A stretch of DNA of 64,000 nt from an uncultured virus (IMG/VR IMGVR_UViG_3300021164_000915) (Duplodnaviria > Heunggongvirae > Uroviricota > Caudoviricetes), in the IMG/VR virus record IMGVR_UViG_3300021164_000915. One strand, given 5' to 3'. Shown here piece by piece: positions 11,950 to 41,700 of this stretch. Both the position numbers and the translations under genes were made by a program. The notes beneath the pieces were generated by a model. That model was not told the DNA's origin and did no database searches. It saw nothing but the letters and a program-made list of their open reading frames with translations. How positions within the stretch are numbered: position 1 is the first letter of the stretch; the number at the start of each line of letters is the position of its first letter.

Positions 11950-12611
11950 TGAGTAGCCAAGACTTCAATCCAGAAGATATGTATCATATGTTTATATTAA
12001 AACAGTTATCGAGCAACATTTGGTATTTTAAAAATGTTATCAGCTATCCAAAAGAATTGCTAGAGTTTATTAATGAAGTCGACCTTGATGAAAGAAGCCA
12101 CGGCGTCATATCTAAATGGAGTCCTTGGATAGCAAGCAACAACCCAGAAGTTGTATACGGCGAAAACAAAAATATAATAACAAAGAATGTTAAAAATAAA
12201 ATTGACAATGGAAGACTAGATCAAAAAATACTATACATTAAGAATAGCCTTGAGATGGCATTTGAGATGTGTCTAAATCAATACCTGTCCAATCACAATC
12301 TAGATCCATCAAAGTATACATTAATGACAGACGAGATTCCAGTAAGAAGATGGACAGGGCCAGGAATGGGACCTCATTGCGATAACTATGACGGAGATAG
12401 CGACCTTGCATTTTCTATGATATCTTATCTAAACTCAGATTATGAGGGTGGGGAAATTGAGTTTCCAAATCACGGCATATCAATAAAACCAGAAGAAGGA
12501 AGCCTTCTTATTTTCCCAAGCCACGAACCATACTTACATAAAGTTAATGATGTAAGATCTGGAGATAGATACACTTCACATCTGTCTGTGTATAATAGCA
12601 AGGTGGTATAA
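11949..12611 (+). CDS. 2OG-Fe(II) oxygenase
   Basis: MGPHCD..YLNSDYEGGEIEF..IFPS..H.V..V.SGDRY; start at TAATG overlap 11949. Confidence 0.85.
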   Translation: MSSQDFNPEDMYHMFILKQLSSNIWYFKNVISYPKELLEFINEVDLDERSHGVISKWSPWIASNNPEVVYGENKNIITKNVKNKIDNGRLDQKILYIKNSLEMAFEMCLNQYLSNHNLDPSKYTLMTDEIPVRRWTGPGMGPHCDNYDGDSDLAFSMISYLNSDYEGGEIEFPNHGISIKPEEGSLLIFPSHEPYLHKVNDVRSGDRYTSHLSVYNSKVV

Positions 12612-23283: not shown

Positions 23284-23371
23284 TAGCTAAGAGGAAAAAG
23301 CCTAGCCAGCTTTGATTTAGATTTAAAAGTAAGTCAATATATATATTTATTTAATAATGGAGGTTTTACAA

Positions 23372-24127
23372 ATGGCACAAAATACAGGAAATGCTAGAAA
23401 TATTCTCGTTGGTGCATCACCACTGTTTCTTTCAGTAGAAGATTCACTAACAGCAGGATACATCGAAAACTTAGTACCAGGAACAGCAAAGGCAGGAGCA
23501 ACTGGAAAGAACCAGCGTGTACCAGCATTTGTTAATGGAACAGCCGCAGGAGCAGGTGGAACACCAGCTGCAATCGCAGGAGAGTCATACACAACAACTC
23601 TTAACGCAATTGATGCAACACCACAAACTGGAGCAACACCAGCAGTTGCAGGAAATGCTTACCGCAACGTAGGTTACACAAATAATGGTCTTCAAATTAC
23701 ATACAACCCATCATACGGTTCAGTAACAGTAGATCAGCTTCTTGATACAGCTAAGCTATTCAAGGAAACAATGGAAGTTATGATTGCAACAGAAATGGCA
23801 GAAGGTACTCTTGAGAACGTTCTTGCAGTATTTGGACAATCATCATCAACACTTAGCGGTGGAACACTTGGTCTTGCAGCAGGCGCACTAGGAGAAGCTC
23901 CAGTTGAGCGTCAGCTAGTTGCAATTGGGCAGGCTCCAACAACTGTAGCAACTGGCTCAAAGACTGAGCGTGTATATTATGGACGTCGTGTCCTTTCTGT
24001 ACAACAGTCACAATTCTCTTTGGCTCGTAACGCTGCTTCAACATTCCCAGTAACATTCCGTCTGCTTCCAGATGGTAATTACCAGGGTGCAGAATACGGT
24101 ACAATCGTAGACCGTAGCTGGTTATAA
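23372..24127 (+). CDS. Major tail (tube) protein
   Basis: GGAGG RBS; NVGYTNNGLQITY.P....VDQ and FPVTFRLLPD motifs; synteny. Confidence 0.8.
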   Translation: MAQNTGNARNILVGASPLFLSVEDSLTAGYIENLVPGTAKAGATGKNQRVPAFVNGTAAGAGGTPAAIAGESYTTTLNAIDATPQTGATPAVAGNAYRNVGYTNNGLQITYNPSYGSVTVDQLLDTAKLFKETMEVMIATEMAEGTLENVLAVFGQSSSTLSGGTLGLAAGALGEAPVERQLVAIGQAPTTVATGSKTERVYYGRRVLSVQQSQFSLARNAASTFPVTFRLLPDGNYQGAEYGTIVDRSWL

Positions 24128-24143
24128 TTAATATTAATTAATT

Positions 24144-24180
24144 AATAAAAGCCCCCCAAGAAATTGGGGGGTTTTTTATT
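24144..24180 (+). terminator. Rho-independent terminator
   Basis: GCCCCCCAA-gaaa-TTGGGGGGT followed by a T run. Confidence 0.85.
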
Positions 24181-24236
24181 GCTATTATATTTTGCATATG
24201 ATACAATAATTAAGACAGAATCCTAGGAGGATTAAA

Positions 24237-24569
24237 ATGGCAAGTACAGTATATGATGTTGAAGAAATTCAACTAGCAAACGGAGCAAACGTAAAGCTAA
24301 AGCCTTTAACAATTAAAGAGCTTCGCAAGTTTATGGCAGCTATCGGCAAAACAGCAGACGCAACAACAGAAGATGAAACACTTACAATCCTAATAGATGC
24401 TTGTGCAGTAGCATTAGAAAAGCAGCTACCAGATTTGGTAAAAGACAGAGACGCATTTGAAGATGTTTTGGATGTTCCAACAATTAATCGCATTCTTGAA
24501 GTCTGTGGCGGGATTAAGATGGACGACCCAAACCTTCTAGCGGCAGCGGTTCTGGCTGGTCAGAACTAG
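24237..24569 (+). CDS. Tail assembly chaperone (gpG-like)
   Basis: AGGAGG RBS; lies between tail tube and tape measure genes. Confidence 0.8.
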   Translation: MASTVYDVEEIQLANGANVKLKPLTIKELRKFMAAIGKTADATTEDETLTILIDACAVALEKQLPDLVKDRDAFEDVLDVPTINRILEVCGGIKMDDPNLLAAAVLAGQN

Positions 24570-24901
24570 ATTTAGCCGCTTTAGAGGGTGAAGTTTTTCT
24601 TTTAGGTAATTGGAAAAATTACGAAGATCTAGAAGATAACCTCTCAATGCCAGAACTAGTAATAACATTTAAAGCAATGCAAAAAACTGAATCGGAAAAA
24701 AGAAAGTTCTTAGCTTCAATACAGGGCATTGAATTAAATGATAGCAGTAATGAAAAAGAGGAGGGATCATCCTTCGAAGATATTCAAAGAAGAGCGCTTG
24801 GAATAAACACATCAGCAGATGACGTTGTTTCACTACAAGGCTCATTTGCAGCGCAAGCTGGCTTTGGTATTGGAGCGGGATTAGGATACTCTATAGAGTA
24901 A
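24527..24901 (+). CDS. -1 frameshift extension of the tail assembly chaperone (gpGT-like)
   Basis: Slippery heptamer C CCA AAC at 24527-24533 in the correct phase; -1 frame open from 24518 to 24901. Confidence 0.8.
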   Translation, partial: PKPSSGSGSGWSELDLAALEGEVFLLGNWKNYEDLEDNLSMPELVITFKAMQKTESEKRKFLASIQGIELNDSSNEKEEGSSFEDIQRRALGINTSADDVVSLQGSFAAQAGFGIGAGLGYSIE

Positions 24902-24910: not shown

Positions 24911-27900
24911 ATGGCAGATAATTTAATCACCACCAACATTACCGCCCACGCAGACTTTACGAGCTTAAGAGCTCAACTAGCGGGGCTTACTGCCCAACTC
25001 TTAAAACTCCAAGAAACAACAGTAGGAACTAACGCAAGGCTCGGACAACAAATTGCTGTAATGAATAAGCAATTCGCCGAGACTTTGCGTTCTACTGGGC
25101 AATACGCTACACACTTTGTAACACTAAATTCTGATGTAGAAAAGTTTGGTAAAAATTTAGACTCAGGAAGATTAAAGCTAAATCAATATTTTAGGGTATG
25201 GCGAGATCATACTAAAAGTTCTGGCGGATTAATAAAAGATCTTGCAAGACAGCAGGTAATGCTTGAGAATGCAGTTGTTCAGCCGTTAGGTAAAAATGCA
25301 CAAGGACTTATGCAATATCAAGTTCATGTTGCAAAAGGCTTAGATTCAATAAAGCACAAGACCGCATTAGCAAGACACGAAGCATCTATCATGAACAAGG
25401 TAATGCTTGATGGATCTAATCAATTAATTAACTGGGGTAAAAATACTCAATGGGCTGGTCGTCAATTAACTGTTGGATTAACTGTACCACTTGCAGCATT
25501 TGGAATGGCGGCTCAAAGAGCATTCTTAGATGCTAATACAGAAATAGTAAGACTTACAAAAGTTTATGGTGGTCTATCGGCAACCTCTAAATCAGAGCTA
25601 GCACAGGTTCAAAAAGATGTAGAAGCCACAGCAAAAGCTATGGCATCATCTTATGGAGTTGCATACAAGGACACAATCGCACTTGCCGCAGACATGGCCG
25701 CAACTGGTAAACAAGGAAATGATTTAATACAAGCAACAGAACAAACAACAAGACTTGCAGTTCTTGGTGAAGTAGATAGACAGCAAGCCATGAAAGCAAC
25801 TCTTGCAATTCAAAATGCATTTAGGCAAAATACAGATGAGCTTACACAATCAATTGACTTCCTTAACGCAGTTGAAAACCAAACCTCTACAAGCCTTGAA
25901 GATTTAACAGAGGCTATTCCAAAAGCTGGTCCAGTAATTCAAGCAATGGGCGGAAGCATTCAAGATCTTGCACTCTATATGACCGCAATGAAAGAAGGAG
26001 GAATTGATGCTTCTTCTGGAGCAAACGCACTCAAGTCTGCATTAGCAGCACTTGTAAATCCAACTGGTGTTGCAGTAGACATGTTTAAAGGATTTGGAAT
26101 TGACCTTAAAGGAATTGTTTCAAAAAATGCAGGAGACTTAACGGCCACAATAATGGGCCTACAGTCAGCATTAGATTCACTTGATCCGCTACAAAAACAA
26201 CAAGCACTAGAACAGCTATTCGGTAAATTCCAGTTTGCAAGAATGAATGCTCTTTTTGCAAACTTAGGAAAGCAAGGATCACAGACGCTACAAGTTTTAG
26301 ATTTAATGAAAGCAAGCTCTGCGGATCTCGCAGCTGTATCAAGTCGAGAATTAAGTATGATAACAGAGTCTGCATCTGGAAAGTACAAGAGAGCATTGGC
26401 ATCAGTACAAGCAGATTTAGCACAAATAGGAAATCAATTTTTAACAATAAGCACTTACGTATTAAATGTTATATCTGGAATAGTTAAATTCTTTAATCAG
26501 CTACCAGACCCTATTCAAAAGATGTTAGGGTTCTTAGGAGGACTAACCGCAATTGCTGGTCCACTTATTATGCTTACTGGTGTACTTGGAAACTTTGTAG
26601 GCTATGTAATCAAGGGAGTATTCCATCTTAAATCATTATTAAAGGGTGGCCAAGGATTTAAATTACTAACACCAGAAATTATTGCAGCCATGGAAGCTGG
26701 AAAAGGGCTACAGGCCACATTCCACTCAGATGCAGAAGCAACAAAAGTATTAACCTCTGCAGTTAATACATTAGCTCAATCATTTACTAATCTAGAAGTT
26801 AAAGCAAATGCAGCAAGAGTATCAATGAACCCAGCAATCACTACAGTTGCCAATGGCGTAATATTACCAGGCCAGGCACATGTTGGCGGAGCTAGCGCTA
26901 GAGTAGTTGATCCAAATAATCCTCTTGTTGGAAGTCCTTACAGCAGACAGATGGCTCACCTTACACCTGCAGGAACTCCGCAGCAAGGATCAATCTTTGG
27001 AGTTGTTCCAAACCCAGGACCAGTAAATCTTAGAATCGGTAAAAATCCACAAGCTTATATGGATAGAGATCTTCCAAAGATTCCAGGACTGACATCAGTA
27101 GGCGGAGTATCAACAGGAATTGTAGCAGCAGAAGCAGCTAAATGGCATGCAATGACTGCAGCTATTGCAATGCAATCAGAGGCAGAAATTAAAGTTCTTA
27201 AGGCAGAAGTTATGTCAACTGGAACGGTTACTTCAAGCCTTTCTGATTCTTATCAAGCCTTATTGCCTCAATTCTCAAAAATAACTAAAACCGCCGCAGC
27301 AGAAGTTGCTCAAATTGTTGAGCAGGTTAAGGCTAGCAAAATAACTGTAGAGCAAGCAAGAGCAAGAATAATAACTTTGAATGCTCAAGTCGAAGCAATG
27401 CTTGTATCAACAACAGCACAAGTTGCAGCAGGTATGGGTAGAACTGCAAACTTAACCACAGTTCCATTAACTGGACAGCCAGCAGTAACTGCAACTGGTA
27501 GATCAAACATGAAGGAGCTTTTCCATAAAGGTCCTACTGCAACAATGGTTGACAGAATTGCTAGGGCTCTAGGTGGAGTTAGAACTTCTGGCGCAGGATA
27601 TTCAATACATACAACTGTCCCTAGATTTAATGATGGTGGGCTTGTTGAAAGTTTTGGATCAAATAAAACTCAGGTAAGCGGTCCTGCATCCGTAAACTAT
27701 GACGACAGACTAGGATCTGTTCCCGTTGGAGGATATGTACTTAATCAAGCAGCATCAATGGATCCACGAAACAGGCCTCTAGTAGAAGCTGCATCTAGCA
27801 CATATCAAGGTGGTGGAGAAATAACTGCAATGCTTACTCCAAAAGAAACAGTATTTGGCGCAGGCATACAGAGAAACCCAGAGCTACTTAAAGCAGTAGA

Positions 27901-30900
27901 TGCAGCAAACAACGGAACCCCACTAACAGCACACATGGGTGGTGGTCATATAACTTTGGAAAGACCAAACTATGGAGCATTAACTCCTAAAGCCCTAGCT
28001 GCATTAATATCAAGAATTACAAGAAGGGGACCTAAGCTATCACCAGAAATAGCTCAAGGAAGAAATTTACAATTAACGGCTGAAGAAGCCATAGCGTACC
28101 AGGCTAGAGTTTTGCCTGCTGGAACTAGAAGAGCTTCAATGGGAGCAGATAGAACTTATTATTATGTTGGCAATTGGGGTGGTAGATTAAGAGGTAGTAC
28201 AAACTCTGCACTACCACACGGCGCAGCTAAAAAATCAGACGTAGTTTATGACTTAATGCACGGATCAGCAGAAGAAGCTTTGCCTTCTCTAGCAAGATTC
28301 TTAGAGGTTCACAAAGTAAGGCCAGAAAGAATAGCTGAGCTAACAAGTCGTGCAAGAGCAAATATAGTAAAAGAATTAGGCGGAGTTGGAACTATTGGAG
28401 AGGCTCAATGGTCTCAAATTCAACATAGACAATACTTGCAGATTGCTAAAGAATTAAGGTTAAAAAAACAATACCTAGAAAGCTTAAATGTCCCAGGACA
28501 AAGAAGAGCTAAATCTTTAGATCCATCAAGAAATGGATATGATAGAGAGACAGCTATTAGTCCATATAATGCTGCTGACTTAAAAACTTTAGATGCACTA
28601 AATGAAGCAAACGGCACAGCCTTTATGGGGTCGTATCGTAACTATGGCATAAGCACAATTGATGGCAAGCCAGCAGTTCTAGCACACATGATGCCAGGAT
28701 TTGCCCTTGGCGGTCCAATAGTAAAGGCTAAGAGAAATTACGGATTAGTAATGGGGCAAATGGGAATCCCTATGTTCAGAGGAGCATACAAATCTCCTTT
28801 AACCATACACCCAGAACAACAAGCCCTTATGGAAAGGCAGCAAGCAGAAAGATGGGCAAAGCTGCCAAAGGATAAGAATGGTGATGTCTGGCACACACCA
28901 GCTGAGTTAGACCTTATGCGTAAGGGCAAGATGGTAATGGGATCAAGACCTATGCCAAAAAGTTTTTATCAAGACTTGGCAAATGACGATCCTTTGCACG
29001 GAACGTTACAGATTGGAAGATATCAGCCACCTCTTCACGTAAGAAATCAATACGTAGGAGAACAAATTAGATATTCATCTCCAACAAATTGGAGAGGTAG
29101 AGAGGGCACGTCTGCCCCAGCTTTTGCAAGCGGAACTCTGGAGACAAGAGCAAGAACTGCATTATTTAGATATATGCAAGGAGACTACTCAGCCATAGGA
29201 GACCCAGCTGTTCAAGCTTACCTATCAGCTATTAGAACAAAGTTTACTGGAACTTTGCATAGAGGCGTAAAAGACGTAGGATCCCTTCCACCAACAATTA
29301 GAGAATTAATAAGGCAAGGCCGATGGTCAGATCTTGTAGGTAAAGAGTTTATTATGCGCCGTTCTTCATGGAGCACAAACGCAGACACAGCAGAAGGCTT
29401 CGGTCAGCTTCAGATAGTTGCTTCTGTTAAAAATAGAAATGCCGTACCAGCTTCTGAAATATTCCCAGATCTAACGTTCCAGTCTCCAAAAGGCCCAGTG
29501 CCAGTAAATGAAAGTGAAGTTTACATGGGAGGAAAGTTTAGAATAGTTGCAGCAGGAAAAGATAGATTAAAACTAGAGGCGGTATATGATGCTGCAAGAG
29601 AAAACGGAGGACCAGTAAATGCTGGAAGACCATACCTAGTTGGAGAAAAAGGCCCAGAAGTATTTGTTCCAAGAAATAGCGGGGGAATAATTCCAAGCTA
29701 TGCTCTTGGCGGAATGATCAGACACGGAAAAAATTCATACGGACGTAAAGGAAATCCTGCTGCACGTGCAGCACAAGAAGCTGCAAAGAGAGCAAGAGCA
29801 GCAGCTTATATCCCAGCTCAGACTGATGCGCCAGAATTTAGAGAAGGACCTCTGTCTGTTGGAAGAACAACAATAGTTGGTAATGGTGGAGTAAGAACAA
29901 ACGTATATGCACCACAGGGATCATTGCCTTATATGCCAGCCCTAAGACTTCCTTTCCAAACATTTAATAATAATTTAACGGCAGCATTTTCATCTATTGG
30001 AGCAAATCTTAAATCTGTTGGGGCAAGCCTTAAGTTAGCCTCAACTAAATTAATTGCAAATGTAAAAACAATACCAGGGCAAATTAAATCTTCATTTACT
30101 CCTATGGCAAATTCAATTAAAAATATTGGTAATCAAATTGTAGTTGCTACTAAAGCCGCTGGAAATAGTATCAGGGCTGCTGGCTCATATGTTAATGGGT
30201 GGATTAGGCCACAGATGTATGGCACAGTTGCGCCTGGAGTTTCTGGTACTGGACCTGCAAGTACATTTGCCGCAAACTTAAGATACAGCACTGGCAACAT
30301 GCTACATCCAATTACATATATACAAAACAAGATGGCTGGCGGAGCAGTAAGAGAACAACCAAAACCTATAATGGGTCCAGATGGTAAGCCTATGATTGAC
30401 AAAGCAACTGGTCAGCCGTACATGACCCAGCCAGGTCGTCCTGCCCCAAGATTTACTGGAACTGGAATGGTAACTCAAGCAGGAGCATCTCTAGGTGGAT
30501 ATGCTCTAGGTAATAAGGTTGGTGGCTCTACAGGAGGCATCATAGGCTCTATAGCAGCCCCACTAGCAGTGCAAGGTATATTCAGGGCTGGAGCCGCAAT
30601 AAAGGCCGCAGGGGGCATTGGAGCCGCACTAGGTGGTGGTGGTATAGCATCAGGAGCCGCAGCCCTTGCTGGATTGGCCCTGCCACTGGCAGTTGTTGCA
30701 ACAGCAGTAGTTGTTGGAATTAAACTCTGGAAAAACCATAAAGAAAGCATGCGATTAAATGCTTTAGGTTATGGAATGACCGCAGAGGCGGCAGCAAAAG
30801 CAGGACTTAAATTTAAAGACTATAACCTTTCATTAAAGGAAACAGTCGAAAGAGCCAAGAATATAAGAGAGACTCAAAATCTTATGTTCCAAAGCATGAC

Positions 30901-33900
30901 TGGTGCTGGAACACCTTTAAATATAACAATTTCAGAATTCAAAAAGCTTAAGAAAACAGTCCAAGATCAATTTGGAGATCAGATTAAGCTAATTAATAAA
31001 ACTAGTGCAGATGATCAATTAGATTTAGCAATGAGACTAAAAACTCAATTTATTTCTATGGGAATGACTGCTGAAGAAGCAACTAAAAAGATTTATACAA
31101 TGTACACTCTGTCAAATTTTGCACAGGATGCAACGCTATACACGGTTCAGTCTCAAGGATTTAATAATATAAAAACAGCAATTGACGCAGCTATTGATTC
31201 ATTAAGAATATATAACGACGCAGTAAAAAATAAGCTAGACCCAACAGAACAAGCAAATGCTTTTAACACAGCACAAATGGGAATTACCACTGCTGTGGAA
31301 GAAGATCAAAAGATAGCTTTAAAAAATAGAAAAGCAGATAAGAGCAAGCCATCTTTTGTAAGTTCTGGTGAAGAAAAACAAATTATGTGGGATGCCGAAC
31401 TGGCAGCCATAGAAAAAATAAATTCAAAACAAAGCGCACAAACAACTATAACTCAAGAGACAATAAATGAGTTAAGAGCAGCCAACTCAGTGATAGGCGA
31501 AATGATAGACCTCCAAGATACAAACGTATCTATTTGGCAAAAAGAAAGGCTTGTGGTAAGAGGATACTCCCAAGACTTATTAGGACTTAATGCACAACAA
31601 GTAAATGCTCTGTACTTACTACAAATGGCAGCAACTAAATCTATTGAGGTAATTGGTAGACAAACTTTCTTAAAAACACAATATAAAGAATTAGATAGAC
31701 TAAAGGGTTTGCAAGAAAAGTATACAAAAGCTTTAAAGGGTCAAAGCGTAGCACAACAAATATCAGATAGAGATAGACTTTCATCACTTCAAAAACAAGT
31801 AGATGCCAATAATAAATTAGCTGCCGCAAGAATAAAAGCACTGGATGCAGCAAAACAAGAAAATGATATAGCGATACAGATTGCTAAAAAGCAGGCGGAG
31901 TATGACGCAGCACTTGCTACAGGAAACACAGCGGCAGCACAGCAAGCAAGCTTAGACATACAGGGCCTACAAAGCGACTTACAGTATAACGCACAGGTTA
32001 AAGCAATTCAAGATGCAACAGATTTTAAGAACGCTCCTTTATTAAGACAAATTGAAATCATTCAAAACAAGCAAAAGAACTTATCAGATGCAGCGGCACT
32101 AGCTGGTGAAAAGCTTGGAGATGTATCCACAGCAATAGGCAAACAAGAAAGCGCAATCGGCACTTTAATTACTGCCATGGCAAACTATAGAACTGCTCTG
32201 CAACAAAATAAAGACCAGTTAGCAGCTTGGAAGGACACCCCAGAAGCAAAGGGTATGTTGGCTGCAATAACTTCAGCAGCGCAAGCATTGAAGGTTGATC
32301 TATCCCCATATCCAGTAGATCCAAAAACTGGAAAACCAGGCGTGGATGCAGGCCAAGGATTATACGATAGCATATCATCAGGACTTGAAGCCTCACTTAT
32401 TAAGAGTGGAATAATTGTAAACGGAGACGTATATGTAAATGGCAAAAAGGTTGCATCATTTGCTAGTGCATTAAAGCAAGCAGACCCTGCAAAAGTTGGC
32501 GGAGGAACATCTGGCACGGGAGCAGATAAAAAATATTATAACGCTGCTGGAGAACAAATTACTAAACAAGTATACGAAGAACTTCCAAAAAGATCAGACG
32601 ATGGAAAGTACACAGTTGGATATAAAGATTTTACAATTCCAGAAAAAGCACTTGCAAATAAAATGTTTAGTACCTGGGGAGATCTTACCGAAGCTTTTTA
32701 TAAAAAATTTGGTGGAGGCACGACTAAAACCGTTATTGCAGGAAATACATATGGAGTTAATGGAGAGGTTTGGATTGGAACAGACACAGTTGGTCAAAAA
32801 CCAGTAGGCTATTGGGCAAATACAACTAATGGTGGAAAGAAGGTTAAGAGCTTTAATCAGGGTGGTCCAATATACGGAGCTGGAACTGCAACCTCAGATT
32901 CTATTCCAGCATTGCTTTCAAATGGAGAGTATGTAGTAAGAGCATCTGCAGTTAAACAATACGGTGTAGAACATTTTGATGCTTTAAACGCACAAAGATT
33001 TGCTGGCGGCGGTCTTGCAGAAGCAATAAGAAAAGATCCAACACTTAGAAATCTTACTTCACCACTAGGTACTAGACAAAGAATGCTAGACACAGCCACA
33101 GCTCAACTTGGAATTTCAGAAGGATTTGATCCAAAAACTGGAGAAGGAAACAATGTAACAAAGTACTCCAAATGGATTAATCAACTTGAAAAACTAGGAT
33201 CAGATGTTGTTGTATGGTGCGGAACATTTATTCAATGGGCAGCAGCAATGTCTGATGTTAAGATACCAGACACTTTCCATACAGCAGCTGGAGCAAGAAG
33301 CTTTGCAGGACTTAAACAGCTTGTAAATGCTGGAATGGATTTGCCAACTGCAAAAGATAAGTTTTCATATAGCACTCCTTATCCAAAAATGGCTGATTTT
33401 AAAGTATCTCAAAGTCGTAATGAAAATGAATATGGAAAGCTTATTGGAAGTCAAAAAAATATTAAAGCCTATGAAGCAGCATATGCAAAATGGGAAAAAG
33501 AAATCAAACTTCCAGAAGATCTTGCAAGAGACAAAAGATTAGAAAAAACATCAGATATTGGATGGGCTAATGTTTTAAAGAATCCTCCAATGCCTGGAGA
33601 TATACTTTATTTAAATTGGGCAATGAATCCAAGGAACGCAAACACTTCTGAAATTCCAAATAGAATAAGACATGCAGCCCTTGTAACAAAAATTTCAGGA
33701 ATAAAAGATATTAATGGAGTTCCTGGGTATTGGATTGATTCAATTGATGGCAATAGCGAAGATAGGGTTCAAAGAAACAACTACGAGTTAACTAGAGCCA
33801 ACATGAGATACAATCCACTTGTAGCTTATGCAAGACCAAACTACAAGCCTTCAAAATCAGGAATGCTTGCAGATATTATTGCAAATCTTTTTAATACAAA

Positions 33901-36900
33901 TGAAAACGATACTTACACAGTAAAAAGAAATAAAACTCTGCCTCAAATTGCAAAGACATTAAAAATAAGTTATGAAGATCTTGCTAAATTAAATCCAGAA
34001 TATTTACAAGGAAACATTGTATATGCAGGCACTGAAATAAATATTCCTAAAGCAAAGCCACCTGTTAAGAAAGCTGCTGGGGGCCCAATATATGGAGCAG
34101 GAACTGCCACATCTGATTCTATCCCAGCGTTACTTTCAAATGGCGAGTACGTAATTAAAGCAGCCTCTGTTGCTAAATATGGCGTTGGAACATTTGATGC
34201 TCTAAATACACAAAGGTTTGCACACGGCGGACCAGTACATCCAAACATTTTATCAAATGAAGTAGGCACAACTGCAAGATCAACAGGGGAACGAATGGGC
34301 GGCCCATTCGGATTGCTTGGTAGAGGAATGCAAGACCTAGGATCGCTAGGTTATGAAATGCTGATGTCTACAGTCAATAGCGGTAAGTTTTTAGCAGGCT
34401 TGGCTTACGATAAGCCTAACTGGATGAGCCCAGAAGATGAAAAGATGTACAAGCAAGCAATACTTGATCTTCAAAAAGGCAATGCAGGTGGAGCTCTTGG
34501 TAGAGTCGCTGGAAGAACAGCAATGTCTGCTTTCAATGTTTACCCTAAAGTCATTCCATGGAATAGGATCTGGAATCAAGCGGGACTAAAAGATTTACCT
34601 GGACAAACAGAATGGTTCCTTGCTAACCTGCCATCTGCAATGCCAGACATATACAATCATTATTTTGGTAAGAAGAAGTATGCCGAAGGTGGGCCTGTAG
34701 CTGATACAGTGTCTTCAATAGACAGATTTAAAAACAAATTTAAAAGTTGGAACGAAGCCGAAGTGCCCGAAATGGCTGGAGGAAGATCTGATTACTACAA
34801 TCGTCGTCCGATTGATACAGTTGGAAAATTTACAGAAAATGAAAGAGAAGTTTCTGAACTTTTGCATGCTTGGACTGGTCTTCTTAATACATACTATGGA
34901 GCTAAATACGAAAATCTGTTTAGAAAAAATAAAAAGGATAGCCTTCTTACAAACCCTATAACCACAGACTTAGAAGTTGCCACTCCAAGAAACGAACTTG
35001 GTCTTAAGGGCCACCGATTAGGAATGTTCACCCCACTATTTGCAGGCACGGACATTAAAGAAAAAATTGGAGGCCAAATGATGATGATGCCAACAATTAT
35101 GGGAGCCGATTACCGTAATATAATGCTTCCAAATCAAAAAGGTTTTGATCCAGTTCCTCTTACTCTTGGCGATCCATATAAAATTGGATTTAAAACATAT
35201 TCTGATAAGATGAGTAAAGATTTTTTAACTAATGAAGATATGAGATTGGACCTGATATCAGTAATTAGTCATGAGTTTGGCCATCAATTACAACAAAGAT
35301 TTGAAAGAAGTAATGTTTTGGGAAATAAAAATACTGCTTCTAAAATTTTTACAGACAACAAAGGCAAAGCTCTAAAGCGAAAAGACTTAGAAGAAATAAA
35401 TGCGGACATGTTATCTGGCGCAATTATTTCAGAAATGTATAACGCTGGTTATATGAAAAATATTGCAACACCAGCAGCAATTACAAAATATTTAAAGAAA
35501 GAATATTTAAAACACGCAGCTAAAAAAGTTGGCTCCACGGACATACAGGCCAGCTACAAAGACGACAAAGGCAAATTAGTTGAGACTGATTCGCATGCAC
35601 ATGACTCAATGTATAGATTTGGGGCCTACATAGAAGGATTTAAAGATAAAAATACCGACATAGCGTTATCTGATTACTTTGGAGTTTCTCCAAAAGATTT
35701 GTATCCCGACACTACAAAAGCAAAATCAGTTGTTGAAACTTTATCTAGTTATAAATTAAAATCAGAGTTCTTTGATGAGAATAACCAGACAAGAATGCCA
35801 GATCTTTTAAATACTAAATATGCAGAAATTTTAGGGCTATCATCTTCTGGACCAACAGTACCTCATAAAGCACTTAACATTCAGACCCCACGTGATTTTG
35901 CAAGAGCTTTAATATCAGCCTATGGAGGAACTCCAACTGAACCTTTGATTAATGGAATACAAGCATGGGCAATGCAAGAAGGCGGACATTGGCAAAACAG
36001 AGCTTTGCATAATCCATTAAATACAACATTGGTTCTCCCAGGATCTACAAAAATGAATACAGTTAATGCAGGAACTGGAACAGGGGTCCAGGCTTATACT
36101 TCATGGGAGCAAGGCTTAGAAGCAACTATGCAAACATTAAGTTTCCCTAATCATGGATACGAAGACATAATTGCAGCCTTTAGAGATAGTAAATCTAAGG
36201 ATGCTGGTAAGTTATTTAAAGCAATAAATAAATCTGACTGGGGCCATCCAAAATATAATTTTGATGTAAACAGTAAATGGACTCAAGCAATGATGCGATA
36301 CAACCCAGCCAAACCATTTGGACCAGATACAAAAAATCCAGAATGGTATTCTGAATTACCAGGTGGCGGCCTTATTACTATTACCGTTACCCCTGAAGAA
36401 AATGAAGATCCTAATTGTCAAGGACCAAATTGTAAGAAAAAGAATTGCGTTGGTCTAGATTGCCCAAACAGAATCCCAGGAGATAAGCCTGATGACAACC
36501 CCTGGGATCCAGATATTGATTGGGAACGATGGTGGCCAAAGGATGAAAAATTATATAGCCCTAAGCAAAGAATAGTAGATTATTACCAGCACGTATATCC
36601 TCAGAGACCAATGAAAAAATTTACTGGAACGCTAAAGAATGCTGCAAACTCACTCCCTAGAGAAAAAACAAAAATGGGAGTATCAATCACAAGCCCGTCC
36701 TCAGTATATGACTTGTTCGAATGGGGCGGTAAAAAGTGGGCAAAGCCTAAGAATGCGGGCGATGCACTTTTTGAAGTACAAGACTATCCAAATGTTGACT
36801 GGCCATTAGGCTCACAAGTAATAGATGGAAAGATTATGAATGTTATTGATCGTCCACACGGAGAGGACTTCTATTACTGGCCAAATGGAGGAATAGGAAC

Positions 36901-37414
36901 AACTAGCAGAATCTCCAAGTGGCCTGGAACAAATATTCCAACTGCCCCAGCAATGGTTCAAAACAAGTTGGAAAAGTTCTTTTTAACTTCCAATCAAGAA
37001 ACTGGATATGCAAATGGATTCCTTAGAGCAGCAGACTACGACAGATTGGCGACATGGAAAGATAAAGATTATCCAGACTCTATAATTCAAAAATTTGCAT
37101 CTGGCGGCTTGGCAACAAAATTTAATATACCTAAATTTGAAAGTGGCATAAATATGGTTCCAGCCAACATGCTCGCTATGCTTCATAAGAATGAAGCAGT
37201 TGTACCAGCTAATATGAACCCCTTTAATCCAAACGCTAATAATGCTACAATGGGTGGAGCAACATATAATATTACAAACAATATAAATGGATACGACGGA
37301 GACTTAAATCAATTGTCAAACATAATAACACAAAGAACCATGACAGCTATTAAGACATTAGATTCTACTAATGCAAAAATGGTGGGAACAAACAAGACTG
37401 TAGGTATTAGATAA
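24911..37414 (+). CDS. Tape measure protein (4167 aa) with multiple cargo domains
   Basis: TP901-type helical N-terminal region and hydrophobic segments; ART-, CHAP-, LysM-, HExxH- and lysozyme-like motifs; follows the chaperone genes. Confidence 0.9.
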   Translation: MADNLITTNITAHADFTSLRAQLAGLTAQLLKLQETTVGTNARLGQQIAVMNKQFAETLRSTGQYATHFVTLNSDVEKFGKNLDSGRLKLNQYFRVWRDHTKSSGGLIKDLARQQVMLENAVVQPLGKNAQGLMQYQVHVAKGLDSIKHKTALARHEASIMNKVMLDGSNQLINWGKNTQWAGRQLTVGLTVPLAAFGMAAQRAFLDANTEIVRLTKVYGGLSATSKSELAQVQKDVEATAKAMASSYGVAYKDTIALAADMAATGKQGNDLIQATEQTTRLAVLGEVDRQQAMKATLAIQNAFRQNTDELTQSIDFLNAVENQTSTSLEDLTEAIPKAGPVIQAMGGSIQDLALYMTAMKEGGIDASSGANALKSALAALVNPTGVAVDMFKGFGIDLKGIVSKNAGDLTATIMGLQSALDSLDPLQKQQALEQLFGKFQFARMNALFANLGKQGSQTLQVLDLMKASSADLAAVSSRELSMITESASGKYKRALASVQADLAQIGNQFLTISTYVLNVISGIVKFFNQLPDPIQKMLGFLGGLTAIAGPLIMLTGVLGNFVGYVIKGVFHLKSLLKGGQGFKLLTPEIIAAMEAGKGLQATFHSDAEATKVLTSAVNTLAQSFTNLEVKANAARVSMNPAITTVANGVILPGQAHVGGASARVVDPNNPLVGSPYSRQMAHLTPAGTPQQGSIFGVVPNPGPVNLRIGKNPQAYMDRDLPKIPGLTSVGGVSTGIVAAEAAKWHAMTAAIAMQSEAEIKVLKAEVMSTGTVTSSLSDSYQALLPQFSKITKTAAAEVAQIVEQVKASKITVEQARARIITLNAQVEAMLVSTTAQVAAGMGRTANLTTVPLTGQPAVTATGRSNMKELFHKGPTATMVDRIARALGGVRTSGAGYSIHTTVPRFNDGGLVESFGSNKTQVSGPASVNYDDRLGSVPVGGYVLNQAASMDPRNRPLVEAASSTYQGGGEITAMLTPKETVFGAGIQRNPELLKAVDAANNGTPLTAHMGGGHITLERPNYGALTPKALAALISRITRRGPKLSPEIAQGRNLQLTAEEAIAYQARVLPAGTRRASMGADRTYYYVGNWGGRLRGSTNSALPHGAAKKSDVVYDLMHGSAEEALPSLARFLEVHKVRPERIAELTSRARANIVKELGGVGTIGEAQWSQIQHRQYLQIAKELRLKKQYLESLNVPGQRRAKSLDPSRNGYDRETAISPYNAADLKTLDALNEANGTAFMGSYRNYGISTIDGKPAVLAHMMPGFALGGPIVKAKRNYGLVMGQMGIPMFRGAYKSPLTIHPEQQALMERQQAERWAKLPKDKNGDVWHTPAELDLMRKGKMVMGSRPMPKSFYQDLANDDPLHGTLQIGRYQPPLHVRNQYVGEQIRYSSPTNWRGREGTSAPAFASGTLETRARTALFRYMQGDYSAIGDPAVQAYLSAIRTKFTGTLHRGVKDVGSLPPTIRELIRQGRWSDLVGKEFIMRRSSWSTNADTAEGFGQLQIVASVKNRNAVPASEIFPDLTFQSPKGPVPVNESEVYMGGKFRIVAAGKDRLKLEAVYDAARENGGPVNAGRPYLVGEKGPEVFVPRNSGGIIPSYALGGMIRHGKNSYGRKGNPAARAAQEAAKRARAAAYIPAQTDAPEFREGPLSVGRTTIVGNGGVRTNVYAPQGSLPYMPALRLPFQTFNNNLTAAFSSIGANLKSVGASLKLASTKLIANVKTIPGQIKSSFTPMANSIKNIGNQIVVATKAAGNSIRAAGSYVNGWIRPQMYGTVAPGVSGTGPASTFAANLRYSTGNMLHPITYIQNKMAGGAVREQPKPIMGPDGKPMIDKATGQPYMTQPGRPAPRFTGTGMVTQAGASLGGYALGNKVGGSTGGIIGSIAAPLAVQGIFRAGAAIKAAGGIGAALGGGGIASGAAALAGLALPLAVVATAVVVGIKLWKNHKESMRLNALGYGMTAEAAAKAGLKFKDYNLSLKETVERAKNIRETQNLMFQSMTGAGTPLNITISEFKKLKKTVQDQFGDQIKLINKTSADDQLDLAMRLKTQFISMGMTAEEATKKIYTMYTLSNFAQDATLYTVQSQGFNNIKTAIDAAIDSLRIYNDAVKNKLDPTEQANAFNTAQMGITTAVEEDQKIALKNRKADKSKPSFVSSGEEKQIMWDAELAAIEKINSKQSAQTTITQETINELRAANSVIGEMIDLQDTNVSIWQKERLVVRGYSQDLLGLNAQQVNALYLLQMAATKSIEVIGRQTFLKTQYKELDRLKGLQEKYTKALKGQSVAQQISDRDRLSSLQKQVDANNKLAAARIKALDAAKQENDIAIQIAKKQAEYDAALATGNTAAAQQASLDIQGLQSDLQYNAQVKAIQDATDFKNAPLLRQIEIIQNKQKNLSDAAALAGEKLGDVSTAIGKQESAIGTLITAMANYRTALQQNKDQLAAWKDTPEAKGMLAAITSAAQALKVDLSPYPVDPKTGKPGVDAGQGLYDSISSGLEASLIKSGIIVNGDVYVNGKKVASFASALKQADPAKVGGGTSGTGADKKYYNAAGEQITKQVYEELPKRSDDGKYTVGYKDFTIPEKALANKMFSTWGDLTEAFYKKFGGGTTKTVIAGNTYGVNGEVWIGTDTVGQKPVGYWANTTNGGKKVKSFNQGGPIYGAGTATSDSIPALLSNGEYVVRASAVKQYGVEHFDALNAQRFAGGGLAEAIRKDPTLRNLTSPLGTRQRMLDTATAQLGISEGFDPKTGEGNNVTKYSKWINQLEKLGSDVVVWCGTFIQWAAAMSDVKIPDTFHTAAGARSFAGLKQLVNAGMDLPTAKDKFSYSTPYPKMADFKVSQSRNENEYGKLIGSQKNIKAYEAAYAKWEKEIKLPEDLARDKRLEKTSDIGWANVLKNPPMPGDILYLNWAMNPRNANTSEIPNRIRHAALVTKISGIKDINGVPGYWIDSIDGNSEDRVQRNNYELTRANMRYNPLVAYARPNYKPSKSGMLADIIANLFNTNENDTYTVKRNKTLPQIAKTLKISYEDLAKLNPEYLQGNIVYAGTEINIPKAKPPVKKAAGGPIYGAGTATSDSIPALLSNGEYVIKAASVAKYGVGTFDALNTQRFAHGGPVHPNILSNEVGTTARSTGERMGGPFGLLGRGMQDLGSLGYEMLMSTVNSGKFLAGLAYDKPNWMSPEDEKMYKQAILDLQKGNAGGALGRVAGRTAMSAFNVYPKVIPWNRIWNQAGLKDLPGQTEWFLANLPSAMPDIYNHYFGKKKYAEGGPVADTVSSIDRFKNKFKSWNEAEVPEMAGGRSDYYNRRPIDTVGKFTENEREVSELLHAWTGLLNTYYGAKYENLFRKNKKDSLLTNPITTDLEVATPRNELGLKGHRLGMFTPLFAGTDIKEKIGGQMMMMPTIMGADYRNIMLPNQKGFDPVPLTLGDPYKIGFKTYSDKMSKDFLTNEDMRLDLISVISHEFGHQLQQRFERSNVLGNKNTASKIFTDNKGKALKRKDLEEINADMLSGAIISEMYNAGYMKNIATPAAITKYLKKEYLKHAAKKVGSTDIQASYKDDKGKLVETDSHAHDSMYRFGAYIEGFKDKNTDIALSDYFGVSPKDLYPDTTKAKSVVETLSSYKLKSEFFDENNQTRMPDLLNTKYAEILGLSSSGPTVPHKALNIQTPRDFARALISAYGGTPTEPLINGIQAWAMQEGGHWQNRALHNPLNTTLVLPGSTKMNTVNAGTGTGVQAYTSWEQGLEATMQTLSFPNHGYEDIIAAFRDSKSKDAGKLFKAINKSDWGHPKYNFDVNSKWTQAMMRYNPAKPFGPDTKNPEWYSELPGGGLITITVTPEENEDPNCQGPNCKKKNCVGLDCPNRIPGDKPDDNPWDPDIDWERWWPKDEKLYSPKQRIVDYYQHVYPQRPMKKFTGTLKNAANSLPREKTKMGVSITSPSSVYDLFEWGGKKWAKPKNAGDALFEVQDYPNVDWPLGSQVIDGKIMNVIDRPHGEDFYYWPNGGIGTTSRISKWPGTNIPTAPAMVQNKLEKFFLTSNQETGYANGFLRAADYDRLATWKDKDYPDSIIQKFASGGLATKFNIPKFESGINMVPANMLAMLHKNEAVVPANMNPFNPNANNATMGGATYNITNNINGYDGDLNQLSNIITQRTMTAIKTLDSTNAKMVGTNKTVGIR
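32861..34231 (+). repeat. Duplicated module of about 50 aa within the tape measure gene (about 32861-33013 and about 34079-34231)
   Basis: GGPIYGAGTATSDSIPALLSNGEYV..A..V..YGV..FDALN.QRFA.GG occurs twice, with many synonymous differences. Confidence 0.9.
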
Positions 37415-38781
37415 TGGCACTAACACTACCAGTAGGCTCTGCTATATACTTAGACGAAACATACGGACTAGATGCACATATATGGAAAAAGGTATCGGAG
37501 CATAACAGGGCTCCAGTTGTTGTAGATACAACAAGAATTGAAAAGTCTCAAAGAATGGCAAATGGCACACTTAGAAAAATCTTTATTGCGGATAAGGTTT
37601 TGATAAGCACAACTTGGTCAGATCTTCCATCTTCTTCTACTATGACAGTAGATGGAGGATGGGGCGCAATGGATTTAAAAACATATTATGAGAATCAGGG
37701 CAAGGGTGCATTCTGGGTAAAGCTATCGCCAAACGGAACATCTGCTAGAGAAAAAATAGTTAAGATGGCTTTTGTTGCAGCAAGTTTTTCAATGATGAAA
37801 AGAAATGTTCGTATGGGGAGCACAACTAGTTCTGCACAGATATCAGCCGCTACTCCAGGAACCACCTCTATTGTTTACACGGCAGACAATAGCTTTCAAG
37901 CAGGAAATACTGTAACGATTAGAGGATTTGAGTCGAGTCAGTTTAACGTAACTAATGCAGTTATATCCGCAGCCACAGCAACAACATTTACAGTGCCAAA
38001 ACAAAAAGATTTATCTTGCTCTATAACTCAAGTGTCTGCATCTGGTGGAGTTATTACATATATAGCAAACAATACTTTTTCTGTTGGGGATCGAATTACA
38101 ATAACTGGCCTTGCAACAACAGCATTTAACTTAACGGATGTTAAGATTGTAGCTGCAGCAGACTCTTATTTTGATGTTTCAAATGCAGCAACAGGAGCAG
38201 CAGTAACTTCGGCAGCTGGCGGAACAGCAACAGTTATTGGTGAGTCAACTGTATTTGCAATAAGCAAAACAGAGCCATCTCTGGCTAATAAAGATATTAA
38301 ATTTACATCTGCTGCTCATAAAATTCATGCAGGAGAAACTGTAAATATAACATCAGTTAGGCCAGACGCAACTATAACAAATGTTACGGCACACACTACG
38401 GCTGGGCAAGTTAAATACACTGCGGCAAATAGCTTTGCGGCTGGAGACTATATTAGTATATCTGGAATAACTCCTTCACAATACAATGTACAGAGTGCAG
38501 CTATTGTTTCTGCTACAGAAACAGACTTTATTATTGCGATTGCGGCGACAGGAACGTTTAGAAAAAGCGGTACTGCATCAAGTATTTTAAATGTTAAGAA
38601 TGCCCTAGTTAAATCTGTAACATCAGATACATTTACTGTAGAATCATTAACTGCAAACGGATTAGCAATAACTTCAACGGCGTCTGCTCAACAAGTTCCA
38701 TCCTATCCAGCATCGGCAGTAAGCGTAAGCTCTGAAGTACAAGAATTTTGGGATGTATCTATAACACTGGAAGAAGTATAA
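37414..38781 (+). CDS. Distal-tail-like minor tail protein with inserted beta repeats
   Basis: First gene after the TMP; RMANGTLRK motif; four N.F..G..I.I.G-type repeats. Confidence 0.6.
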   Translation: MALTLPVGSAIYLDETYGLDAHIWKKVSEHNRAPVVVDTTRIEKSQRMANGTLRKIFIADKVLISTTWSDLPSSSTMTVDGGWGAMDLKTYYENQGKGAFWVKLSPNGTSAREKIVKMAFVAASFSMMKRNVRMGSTTSSAQISAATPGTTSIVYTADNSFQAGNTVTIRGFESSQFNVTNAVISAATATTFTVPKQKDLSCSITQVSASGGVITYIANNTFSVGDRITITGLATTAFNLTDVKIVAAADSYFDVSNAATGAAVTSAAGGTATVIGESTVFAISKTEPSLANKDIKFTSAAHKIHAGETVNITSVRPDATITNVTAHTTAGQVKYTAANSFAAGDYISISGITPSQYNVQSAAIVSATETDFIIAIAATGTFRKSGTASSILNVKNALVKSVTSDTFTVESLTANGLAITSTASAQQVPSYPASAVSVSSEVQEFWDVSITLEEV

Positions 38782-41700
38782 TGTTAACTTCTTTAAATGC
38801 GGCCAGCTATATAAATCAATCACAATCCTTTAAGATGTCTCAAGGATGTTTGATCGAATATAATATGAACGATTTAATTGATGGGGCAAAGATTGAAGCT
38901 GCTGACGGAGTAATAACGCAAAAAAGAACTGCCCCTGCATCTCAAGGCGGATATGAGTATAAGCCATTTGAAAAGCTATTTCCTATTACAAGCATAATCG
39001 ATCCTAGACGTCCAAAGTCTGCTGGAATACAGTATCTTATTTTGGGGGATCCAAGCATTACAAAACTTGATTCAGCTTCAAGCTATGCATCTTCAAAAAC
39101 ACTTTCAAAAAGATTATACTTTTCAGGTGTTAAAACTGCATATAAATATTGGGTAACCCCAGTAGCTACTGTAAACGGAAAGCCAGACGGAGTTCCAACA
39201 AAAACATTAACTGGCTGCATTTTGCAATTAAGGTACCCAGCAGCAAGAAAAGCAACCGCTAACAAAATAACTATTAAGTTTGAAACATCTCACTCTAAGC
39301 CAACCTCATGGACACTTAAGTCATTAAATTTATTAGGAGTAGAAGCTCCTCTATATACTGGAACAACTTGCCCAGATAATGGAGTAGTTAATTTATACTA
39401 CAACGGAACAACATGGTCCCAGACTGAATTTGAAACACCAACAGCTGGTTTTGATTTAAGCGGACTAGACCTACAAATAAATTCTATAGATACAGCTGGC
39501 GGCTACTTAGGTATAATTGAAATTTCTCCAAGATACGTGATAGACGTATCAGAAAAAGTACAAAAAATTAGTTTTAGTCAAAACGCTTCAGACTCAACTT
39601 CTGATTTGGTTCCTGTTGGAAATGTAACTTCAAACTCTTTGCAAATATCTTTATTTGCATTTGATCAGCTGTATACAGTGTATGACAAAACACAGGCTTT
39701 TGATAAAACAAAATTAGTTTTGTACAAAAATATTTTAGTTAGTCCATACGTCACAGTAGAATCAGAAAAAATTAATTTGGGAAAATTTTATTTAGACTCT
39801 TTTACAACTGCTGAATATGGAGACATTACACTTACAGCATTAGATGGGGCTAGAGAATTGCAGTACATAAAGCCTCCAGATATTATTACAAAATCAATGT
39901 CTTCGGTTGCAATTATAAGAAGGCTTCTTGACTCTATTGGATTTACAAACTATAATTTTAATTCACCAGAAGATGACTCGGCAACGATAACTCCATTTTA
40001 TTGGTATACAGATCCTAATAAAACAGTTTGGCAACACATACAAGATTTATGTCAAGACACTCAAATGATAGCTTCATTTGATAACAACGATGTACTTCAA
40101 TTTTATCCAAGAGACTACATCTTTAAAAACAAGACCCCGCAGTTCTCATTTAGATCAAAGTCTAATGCTGTAAATTTATCAAACATATCTACATTGTCAG
40201 TTGAAAATGTGCCGTCTGTAAAGGCAATTAAAATTATCTACAACTCACAATTAAGCTCATCTTATATTAGAAATGCGGACCCTCTTTATACTTCCCCAAT
40301 AGTAACACTAGGAGCAGCAGCGCTATCAATGGGGTTAACTGCAGCATCTGATCCATTTGGAGTCCCAGGTGACGACCTCTATGCAGAAAAAGGAGTTATT
40401 CTTTTAGAGCCAGTAGTGATATCAGGTGAAGCAAAACAGCTATACTCTTATTCTGGCTATTTGGTAATTGAAAAAGAAGTAATTGAGTATGATGCCATAG
40501 GATATAAATACAAGCCTCTGGGAACTACGGGAGTTAAGTACATTTGGATTACATCTGAATCCGAGATACAAAAACATCAAGGCCTAGCCGAACCAAATAC
40601 ATTCGAGCCTTCGTATTTTTATAGAATAAAAACTAGAAATGTATTTAATACTATTGACTTAGCAAAAGATCCAGAAGGCATGACCCACCTAGTTGAACCA
40701 AGTGAGTATGCAAGCGGGTGGACTGGAAAGACACTAGAAACAACAACAGGAGTAGCTGGAAACGCAGACGCATCTTTGTTTACTTTAAGTCAAAAAGAAG
40801 TTACAGTTACCACTACAGAAGTTAATGGTGTAAAAAAAGTAAATCGCCCACACAATTTATTAAATTCAATTTCAAGATCTATGCTTTCTGTATTTGCCCC
40901 AGATGGAAAAGAAATCGACCCTAAGCCTGGGGAAGTTGGTACGGGGTGGGCGCAAAACACTTTATACACTTTTGTTTCCACAGATGCAGATTACAAAGAT
41001 AGTGAAAATTTTGTCATGGGAACCAACATGTACTTCCCCCTAGTTGTAAATCCAGAGACTGGAATTCAAACTGGAATGCAACGAACAATAGCAGGAATGG
41101 CATTTTCATTAGACGCCAATAATAGAAATGGATATCTTTTAACAATTGAGACTACGCAAAACTACAAAGTAGACAAAAATTATAGAAATGTTAATTTTTA
41201 TAAAATAGATAATGGCAAACTAAAGCCGCTAAAAAATTCACAAGTAGAAGAAGGCGGGACTATTATAACTAATATTAATGGTGGAACCCTTTATAAAATA
41301 GATATTCGTGGAAACTTTTCTGTTCCAGAGTTTCAAGGCGGTACGCCAACTAATACAAAGGCTCTCGCTTTAAAAATACTTATTAACAATAAAACTTTTT
41401 CTGTAGTTGATACAGAGCCACCAGCAGCACTAACAAATAGAATTGGGTTGGTATCTGGAGCTGGCACGGTTGCATTTGATTATGTATATACCTCACCAAT
41501 TACAAAAGAAGATTTCTTGTATAACAATTCATTTGATTTATACAAGGGTTTATTTGGAGGGCAATCAACCCTGCTTAAAAATTTCTCTGACTTTGTATTT
41601 AATGCAGGAGTAAAGCCAGCTAGCCCACTTTGGATAAAAGAATTCGGGCCAGTAGCCAGAGAGCTAAGAAAAATTACAACAAGGTATACGAGTCCTGGAT

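Follow-up and report, generated by a model that had tools for sequence, protein, structure and literature searches.

Introduction

It is already known that tape measure proteins (TMPs) can bear enzymes, as in the phages TM4, T5 and P23-45, and that they can undergo maturation, as in lambda and T5; polyvalent proteins are likewise well described. Where TMPs are cut, and by which proteases, is still an open question, of which gpH of lambda is an example: its processed form gpH* is estimated to comprise about residues 1-710, and a 2025 paper states both the site and the protease to be unknown (PMC12617516). In T5, the TMP pb2 is cut after R1127, a site mapped by mass spectrometry (PMC10038345).

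In this work we describe the TMP gene of an uncultured tailed virus (IMG/VR record IMGVR_UViG_3300021164_000915), which lies in a stretch of 64,000 nucleotides (nt) that we call the window. The gene (24911-37414, plus strand, as are all of its parts given below) is a single open frame of 4,167 amino acids (aa). An earlier note had proposed that this protein carries enzymatic cargo after its helical core, punctuated by [FY]xxGG motifs which would mark cleavage or recombination joints of a polymorphic effector-delivery platform. We find that the motif belongs to a short Gly-Gly joint, that whole cassettes are exchanged at this joint among related phages, and that a homologous joint sits at the cut of T5 pb2. 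The reading which we prefer, and to which we give a probability of roughly one half, is that this siphophage TMP doubles as a cassette carrier, whose joints are cut at the terminal site and at some or all of the internal ones.

Results

A Gly-Gly joint in the variable zones of the TMP

The protein is identified as a TMP by Pfam PhageMin_Tail (PF10145; aa 239-438, E 2e-28, 100.3 bits against a cut-off of 33.2) and by PHROG 10030 (aa 144-865, E 3e-119), in a gene order like that of Streptomyces phage BoomerJR. Relatives were collected with the TMP core as query, taking the best 80 of 141 IMG/VR loci; partial open reading frames, duplicates and three early-stopping frames were left out, and the 41 distinct complete TMPs of at least 2,000 aa that were kept (2,042-3,554 aa) were collapsed, together with that of the window, to 23 clusters. 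All relatives keep a scaffold 1 of about 895 aa and a scaffold 2 of 533-634 aa, with a zone A of 323-974 aa between the two and a zone B of 194-1,757 aa after the second. In the window, scaffold 1 (aa 1-905; 24911-27625) is a TP901-type TMP core containing the PF10145 match, is covered by all 44 complete relatives compared and has hydrophobic stretches at aa 510-528 and 537-571, whereas scaffold 2 (aa ~1850-2455; 30458-32275) is free of joints and opens with a predicted membrane segment at aa 1906-1941 (both by hydropathy). The earlier note needs a correction on this point: rather than coming wholly after the helical core, the cargo sits in two zones, with scaffold 2 between them.

All eleven motifs that had been listed were found in place: FNDGG (27626), FALGG (28700), RENGG (29597), YALGG (29699), FNQGG (32852), FAGGG (32999), KAAGG (34070), FAHGG (34217), YAEGG (34679), FASGG (37094) and FESG (aa 4076; 37136). 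The pattern [FY]xxGG occurs 10 times in the protein (with one, FEWGG at aa 3936, lying outside the joints), against a mean of 2.2 in whole shuffles, of which 1 in 2,000 reached 10, and of 2.35 in block shuffles, of which none in 2,000 did. Generalised from the relatives, the motif becomes [FYMLRK]-[ANE]-x-G-G-x-[VI], and over the 23 clusters the corresponding joint profile gives 195 matches in 24,528 aa of variable zones (7.7 after shuffling) and 2 in 32,105 aa of scaffolds. Shuffle and profile counts together rule out a chance motif. The TMP of the window has 11 strong and 3 degenerate joints, a twelfth profile match, at aa 1864, being discounted.

The joint starts and ends modules of 25-60 residues, and it also occurs in tandem arrays of 8-9 residues. 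Module M1 (aa 906-1022; 27626-27976) consists of two divergent module copies, with joints at 906, 965 and, in degenerate form, 1007; module M2 (aa 1563-1612; 29597-29746), with joints at 1563, 1588 and 1597, is homologous to residues 1127-1159 of T5 pb2. The SDSIPA module is present twice (aa 2648-2696, 32852-32998; aa 3054-3102, 34070-34216), as a 152-nt direct repeat, 76% identical, with a spacing of 1,218 nt, and it is also found in the TMPs of Douge and JBD30. A terminal joint, the HKNE module and a C-terminal tip piece make up the last 106 aa (aa 4062-4167; 37094-37414). Phage records with a match number 1,305 for the SDSIPA module and 245 for M2, and among the listed rows that are annotated most are TMPs. 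That the different TMP C-terminal motifs remarked on in the earlier note form a single family could not be shown: with the SDSIPA profile, the match to M1 is weak (E 0.003 and 0.02), that to HKNE has E 0.2, and M2 gives none (nor does hhalign between M2 and SDSIPA). Apart from the joint, M1, M2, SDSIPA and HKNE have nothing in common but an x-L-x-x-G/N-E core that can be seen by eye. A homotrimer prediction for the module scored 0.05, which carries no weight either way.

Cassette exchange at the joint

In the relatives, it is at the joint that whole cassettes come and go, replace one another and change places, a result that we hold with high confidence. The recombination joints of a polymorphic platform, put forward in the earlier note, thereby pass the alignment check against relatives which that note had itself proposed. 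In relative L137, the CHAP-LysM cassette is missing together with one 49-aa module, that is, aa 2697-3102 or an equivalent 406 aa; its single module has upstream DNA like that preceding copy 1 in the window and downstream DNA like that following copy 2. Both L137 and L022 carry another cassette ahead of the same M2 joint that, in the window, follows an ADP-ribosyltransferase (ART) domain, and L042 has its first cassette ahead of this joint; in L137, the other cassette replaces the ART. We found 50 ART loci, 43 without duplicates; in 41 of the 43, a joint lies 22-27 aa past the last conserved ART motif, including three distant TMPs (L128-L130) which have the ART in the C-terminal zone and where it is still joint-ended. 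The ART is preceded by at least six different first-slot families. P0004 shares cassette A1 and the 805-aa block with the window; where the window has CHAP-LysM and the 154-aa block, it carries a different cassette. Cassette sharing does not, moreover, track core identity: relatives at 80% lack A1, and L022, at about 60%, has it.

Contigs from other freshwater runs span the joint regions 906-1007, 1264-1597, 2648-2697, 3054-3103, 3257 and 4062. Because they cross these six regions with 0-2 differences, the gene is not an assembly chimera, an explanation also ruled out by near-identical genes elsewhere. No cassette-sized skip at a joint was seen in four other sequencing runs. The joint is a marker of cassette boundaries in a widespread freshwater phage group, even without cutting.

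Several further observations concern the cassettes of relatives. The slot of A1 (aa ~1023-1263; 27977-28699) is filled by about ten other families, every relative examined having a cassette of 200-370 aa directly after M1; several of these end in an Ala/Phe-Ala-His-like motif, and the slot diverges fast (82% DNA identity in a strain with a 98% core). All A1-slot families were also considered as one superfamily, but hhalign links only some pairs and several of the links are module remnants. Another, unassigned family, of 140-180 aa with 13 distinct members, all in zone A, alternates with the ART (L022:5393-5860, L052:13019-13444, L137 aa 1232-1410). The ART slot at L022:4388-5392, L060:9671-10651 and P0003 aa 1327-1689 holds a cassette, bounded by joints, that resembles a kinase on visual inspection but finds no support for this in Pfam or the PDB. 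The early-stopping frames, which may stem from assembly error or from a real split, are those of L010 (1,736 aa), L011 (1,179 aa) and L024 (1,616 aa); L010 has more joint-bounded cassettes in a downstream frame.

Cargo of the two zones

Among the cargo domains named in the earlier note, ART, CHAP and LysM hold, while the HExxH and lysozyme-like domains are weaker (Z 7.0 and 7.8, under the Z 8 caution line of the tool). The expectation that motifs lie at domain boundaries is right for cassettes, which may hold several domains, and not for every domain: CHAP and LysM share one cassette, and the HExxH part, the lysozyme-like part and a C-terminal block lie in one 805-aa cassette with no joint inside.

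In zone A, the ART cassette (aa 1264-1562; 28700-29596) consists of a variable leader and an R-S-E ART fold at aa 1408-1559, with R1451, S1486 and E1534-x-E1536, which ends three residues ahead of the next joint. The Glu-x-Glu pattern of ARTs favours arginine targets. The model has a predicted local distance difference test score (pLDDT) of 64 overall and mostly 70-90 in the fold; its best structural match is 8za7 (Z 11.5, root-mean-square deviation 3.0, 134 residues aligned), the top 19 rows at Z of at least 8 are all ART-fold chains, and Foldseek gives E 1e-4. Antibacterial ART/immunity pairs (8za7, 6dre/6drh) are found among the top fold matches, and ModA/ModB among the viral ones; by Pfam alone the domain is below the cut-off. 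Over 37 sequences, both Glu and one Ser are invariant and the Arg is kept in 90% or more. On its modelled fold, the domain is an R-S-E mono-ADP-ribosyltransferase of the C3/VIP2/Alt-Mod clade, of putative activity. For cassette A1, nothing was found in Pfam, PHROGs, PDB sequences or Atlas, and single-sequence locus searches with A1 and with the HExxH domain returned the two nearest strains only. After M2 comes an optional basic block (aa 1613-1850; 29747-30460), missing from most relatives.

In zone B, the CHAP-LysM cassette (aa 2697-3053; 32999-34069) has Cys2770 and His2921 in its CHAP part and LysM at aa 3002-3046 (24.8 bits against a cut-off of 20.9). The CHAP of the window itself has no Pfam match, probably because of an insertion; that of relative L111 passes Pfam (E 2e-8), and the Cys and His are invariant in the five sequences aligned. 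Between SDSIPA copy 2 and the 805-aa cassette lies the unassigned 154-aa cassette (aa 3103-3256; 34217-34678). The model of the 805-aa cassette (aa 3257-4061; 34679-37093) is weak (pLDDT 58). Its first part contains HEFGH (3454-3458) and E3495, a downstream Glu which we take to be the third zinc ligand; the motifs are invariant in four of four sequences and, on this low-confidence model, the best zincin match has Z 7.0, so that a zinc peptidase (gluzincin) is probable. The part at aa ~3658-3799 is probably a glucosaminidase/lysozyme-like domain, judging from its model: the top four rows are AtlA, FlgJ, a type VI secretion system effector and a glucosaminidase (Z 7.1-7.8), Atlas gives 0.91 to PF01832 on just 137 shared features, and E3690 is invariant in 35 sequences. 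This domain, which has no Pfam match in the window, has more than 1,300 homologues. It is followed by a Cys- and Asp/Pro-rich low-complexity linker (36341-36500), variable among relatives.

When distinct cases were sorted by motif search, the ART was in zone A in 35 of 35 (L128-L130 not being counted), and zone B held CHAP (8/8), the lysozyme-like domain (4/4), HExxH (4/4) and one OmpA-type domain. This suggests that wall enzymes are placed at the first-leaving end and cytoplasmic effectors behind the membrane segment. The OmpA-family peptidoglycan-binding domain is a zone B cassette at L037:15632-16240 (E 2e-18).

The joint at known processing sites

In T5 pb2, the joint profile trained on the family of the window gives a single site of at least 7 bits, R1127 (10.3 bits, the next being 6.1), and any such site appeared in 1% of 300 shuffles. 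The alignment of the M2 profile to residues 1127-1159 begins at the same R1127 (E 8e-5 in a two-sequence search), and 1219 minus 1127 gives the 92 residues quoted for pb2C in PMC12617516. A profile from an unrelated lake-phage family thus lands on the sole precisely mapped TMP cut. Because a homologous joint sits at this cut, the joint may well mark a cut that releases cargo. To that extent the idea of the motif as a cleavage mark has indirect backing from T5, although no protease that cuts joints was found in the window.

Other cultured phages have the joint in comparable places. In lambda gpH, joints lie at 733 and 778, which is compatible with the estimated end of gpH*. In TM4, the mt3 hydrolase comes right after a module (703-761) and a joint (762). 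JBD30 residues 1022-1066, predicted elsewhere as a 'hook' of two helices and a hairpin that would be followed by a software-guessed cut (PMC11445458), match the SDSIPA module. Candidate cut sites can accordingly be named at lambda 733/778, TM4 703/762, Douge 963/1411 and JBD30 1019.

The TM4 case also bears on tail length, since loss of the joint-flanked 114-aa mt3 cargo shortened the tail by ~20 nm (PMC1796659), so that cargo counts towards tail length. By analogy, the helical part is not expected to determine tail length by itself here, and threading of the whole chain would give about 625 nm at 0.15 nm per residue.

Genomic setting

Upstream, three genes (23357-24901, plus strand) stand in the positions of the major tail protein and two tail assembly chaperones, by comparison with BoomerJR genes 58-60; PHROGs returned 'protein with Ig domain' and unknown function for them, nothing more specific. 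Downstream (37414-42227, plus strand) are tail-tip genes of 455 aa and about 1,150 aa, the second matching PHROG 10359, minor tail protein (E 4e-70). The TMP gene is therefore flanked by chaperone-position genes (assigned by position) and tail-tip genes. The window also encodes a RecA (56308-57312, plus strand), which may serve cassette exchange between module copies, and a RuvC-like protein (60806-61372, plus strand); these belong to a region (56308-61372) with a Cas4-like nuclease, adjoining DnaB, DnaG and Pol III alpha.

Elsewhere, 2OG-Fe(II) oxygenase genes form a run next to fibre-like genes (7023-12611), in the company of an Asp/Asn beta-hydroxylase, DUF6065 and a sulfotransferase-like gene, and one further oxygenase with DUF6065 follows RecA (57483-59326). 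Two fibre-like proteins (12619-13749 and 43541-46210) have C-terminal Peptidase_S74 chaperone domains, and the product of 3173-5731 has an Mtd_N domain at its start. Thirteen sequencing runs contain at least half of the words of the stretch; they are labelled freshwater or lake, one being a fungus metagenome. The phage may have a freshwater actinobacterial host.

Discussion

The variable zones consist of copies of an ordinary near-C-terminal TMP junction (the 9-residue Gly-Gly joint and its 25-60-residue module), and it is at these copies that cassettes are exchanged. In the mechanism that we propose, the exchange would proceed by homologous recombination between module copies, plausibly through the RecA of the phage itself. 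The complete chain, cargo included, would be threaded in the tail; the joint would retain the role of the T5 pb2 maturation cut, and the chain would be cut at its last joint as well as at some, or all, of those inside it. At ejection, the C-terminal zone would exit first and deliver the wall-degrading CHAP-LysM, glucosaminidase and peptidase, and the zone between the membrane segments would supply cytoplasmic effectors (ART, A1) before the DNA, as T4 does with Alt, but through the tail. Delivery of the cargo together with the TMP is likely, since TMP ejection is known; as for cutting at internal joints, the sequences leave the odds about even.

Once joints and modules had been masked, 39 of 106 alignment ends were no farther than 10 aa from a joint in both partners (null mean 0.7, maximum 5). 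This speaks for exchange at joints, but masking itself stops alignments at joints and so inflates the count, for which reason the single cases described above weigh more. A number of observations weigh against the mechanism. In unmasked alignments, whose rows are not independent, 58 of 63 right ends fall at joints of the window and just 10 of 64 left ends do, the latter because cassettes have variable leaders. In the comparison with a 98%-core strain, the low-identity patches have 12 ends, of which only 4 come within 10 aa of a joint, and therefore ordinary recombination inside cassettes also occurs. The coincidence of breakpoints and motif thus holds for right ends of cassettes and ends of ARTs, and less so for cassette N-termini and patches between close strains. 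The position of the T5 cut is occupied by R/K in 40 of 194 joints and by F/Y/M/L in 147, while in 103 of 194 either position 0 or position -1 is basic (23% expected). Tandem arrays in relatives show 28 spacings of 9 aa, for which a structural repeat is likelier than a cut site. Hydropathy of the second membrane segment exceeds 1.6 in just 9 of 23 clusters, the C-terminal ARTs of L128-L130 depart from strict sorting, and gp96 of P23-45 has an enzyme with no joint series. No joint-cutting protease was identified within the window, genes outside it not having been searched; the HExxH domain of the cargo was rejected for this role, as it is present in 4 distinct sequences only and joints are universal. 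The window encodes a prohead protease. A 1973 paper reportedly, by its title, deals with host involvement in T5 tail cleavage.

The strongest alternative, which we consider less probable yet a serious contender, is that only the last joint is cut, in the manner of T5 and lambda, the internal joints and modules being structural hinges or hooks that aid threading and refolding. The cargo would then remain attached to a TMP that is inserted in the membrane. Such a tethered model has been put forward for the virion RNA polymerase of P23-45 (PMC10770324) and is itself a point in favour of this alternative, together with the tandem 9-residue arrays, the mixed residues at the T5 cut position, the multi-domain cassettes without an internal joint and the 'hook' prediction for the module-matching segment of JBD30 (PMC11445458). 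What speaks against hinges is that, of the internal joints, the one with the greatest likeness to the T5 cut site (R-x-x-G-G followed by M2) comes directly after the ART in nearly all carriers, and that the ART fold stops 3 residues short of it.

It is improbable that the internal joints have no function in the protein and are DNA-level scars of duplication and recombination, kept as homology for cassette arrival. The direct repeat around CHAP-LysM, the L137 junction, the phage RecA and RuvC and a codon bias (GGY-GGA in 110 of 188 joints) would fit such scars. However, Gly-Gly is maintained under 14 different codon pairs, the SDSIPA copies differ mainly at silent positions (longest identical run 11 nt) and the joint is conserved from lambda and T5 through actinophages; since these codon pairs are so varied, and the module proteins are near-identical at 76% DNA identity, the joint is under constraint at the protein level. 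As to the purpose of the cargo, it is likewise improbable that the ART acts as a 'Trojan horse', poisoning protists that graze on infected bacteria, and not as a host-takeover enzyme. The idea was proposed for 24 freshwater phages with VIP2-like ARTs, which the available passages do not place in TMPs (PMC6802176), and the VIP2/C3-like fold agrees with it. Against it, the ART lies in a few-copies-per-virion protein ejected into the bacterial envelope, and its top folds include the antibacterial ART/immunity pairs, with ModA/ModB among the viral matches.

A bolder form of the cutting model is doubtful in our opinion: tailed phages in general would use the Gly-Gly joint as a portable code for processing, and in the window the T5/lambda cut would have been multiplied, with every joint cut. 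Two corollaries are equally tentative, namely a sorted effector train, with wall hydrolases outside and the ART and an undescribed, fast-swapped A1 class inside, and the action of one protease, or of the module itself, as the cutter. If internal joints are indeed cut, TMPs would offer a way, built on cassettes, of injecting effectors ahead of the genome, and many unannotated candidate effectors would be delimited by joints.

A literature search, which left subscription papers mostly uncovered, found no description of a repeated joint that bounds exchangeable cassettes or of its coincidence with the T5 cut, nor any passage on a mapped processing of the Barnyard TMP. Several known systems share single elements with the TMP of the window. 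T5 pb2 is cut at position 0 of the homologous joint, an M2-like module follows, and the cut frees a tip-proximal piece described as having a muralytic metallopeptidase motif (PMC10038345). It has, however, one joint in 1,219 aa, as opposed to the 11 strong and 3 degenerate ones of the window, no known variable cassette zones, and a host of another phylum. In lambda gpH (gpH*/gpHC), the joints bracket a homologue of the module in the glycine-rich cut region, but there is no enzyme cargo, and a ~14-kDa estimate points slightly upstream of 733 (PMC12617516). The 106-aa terminal piece of the window is comparable in place and size to pb2C of T5 (92 aa) and to gpHC of lambda (PMC12617516, PMC10038345).

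The same SDSIPA-type module as in the window is found in TM4 gp17 (the TMP with motif 3), in Douge gp16 (which has two) and in JBD30 gp46; in TM4, the peptidoglycan hydrolase starts after the module and joint (PMC1796659), and in JBD30 the module was noted just as a predicted 'hook' (PMC11445458). These TMPs differ from that of the window in having one or two modules and cargo that is wall-degrading only. The closest cultured TMP cores are those of the Stanwilliamsviridae (BoomerJR, Yaboi, Bmoc), at 32-34% identity and with the same head-tail gene order, but their TMP has 2,093 aa and one strong joint near the C-terminus. Thermus phage P23-45 gp96 is, like our protein, a giant TMP (5,002 aa) with an enzyme that acts in the cytoplasm, whereas that enzyme is an N-terminal RNA polymerase fusion (PMC10770324), and gp96 has one weak joint match and no module.

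Finally, the polyvalent proteins and T4 Alt resemble the TMP of the window in that a single injected chain bears several enzymes with no relation to each other (ART, metallopeptidase, lysozyme), delivery in the window being presumed, and proteolytic release has been proposed for polyvalent proteins as well (PMC5512222). Their hallmark LPD and MPTase domains gave no Pfam match in the window, the HExxH domain not having been compared with MPTase profiles. The ART of the polyvalent proteins (Iyer 2017) belongs to an H-Y-D clade (PMC5512222), whereas that of the window has R-S-E residues and is placed inside a TMP, between repeated joints.

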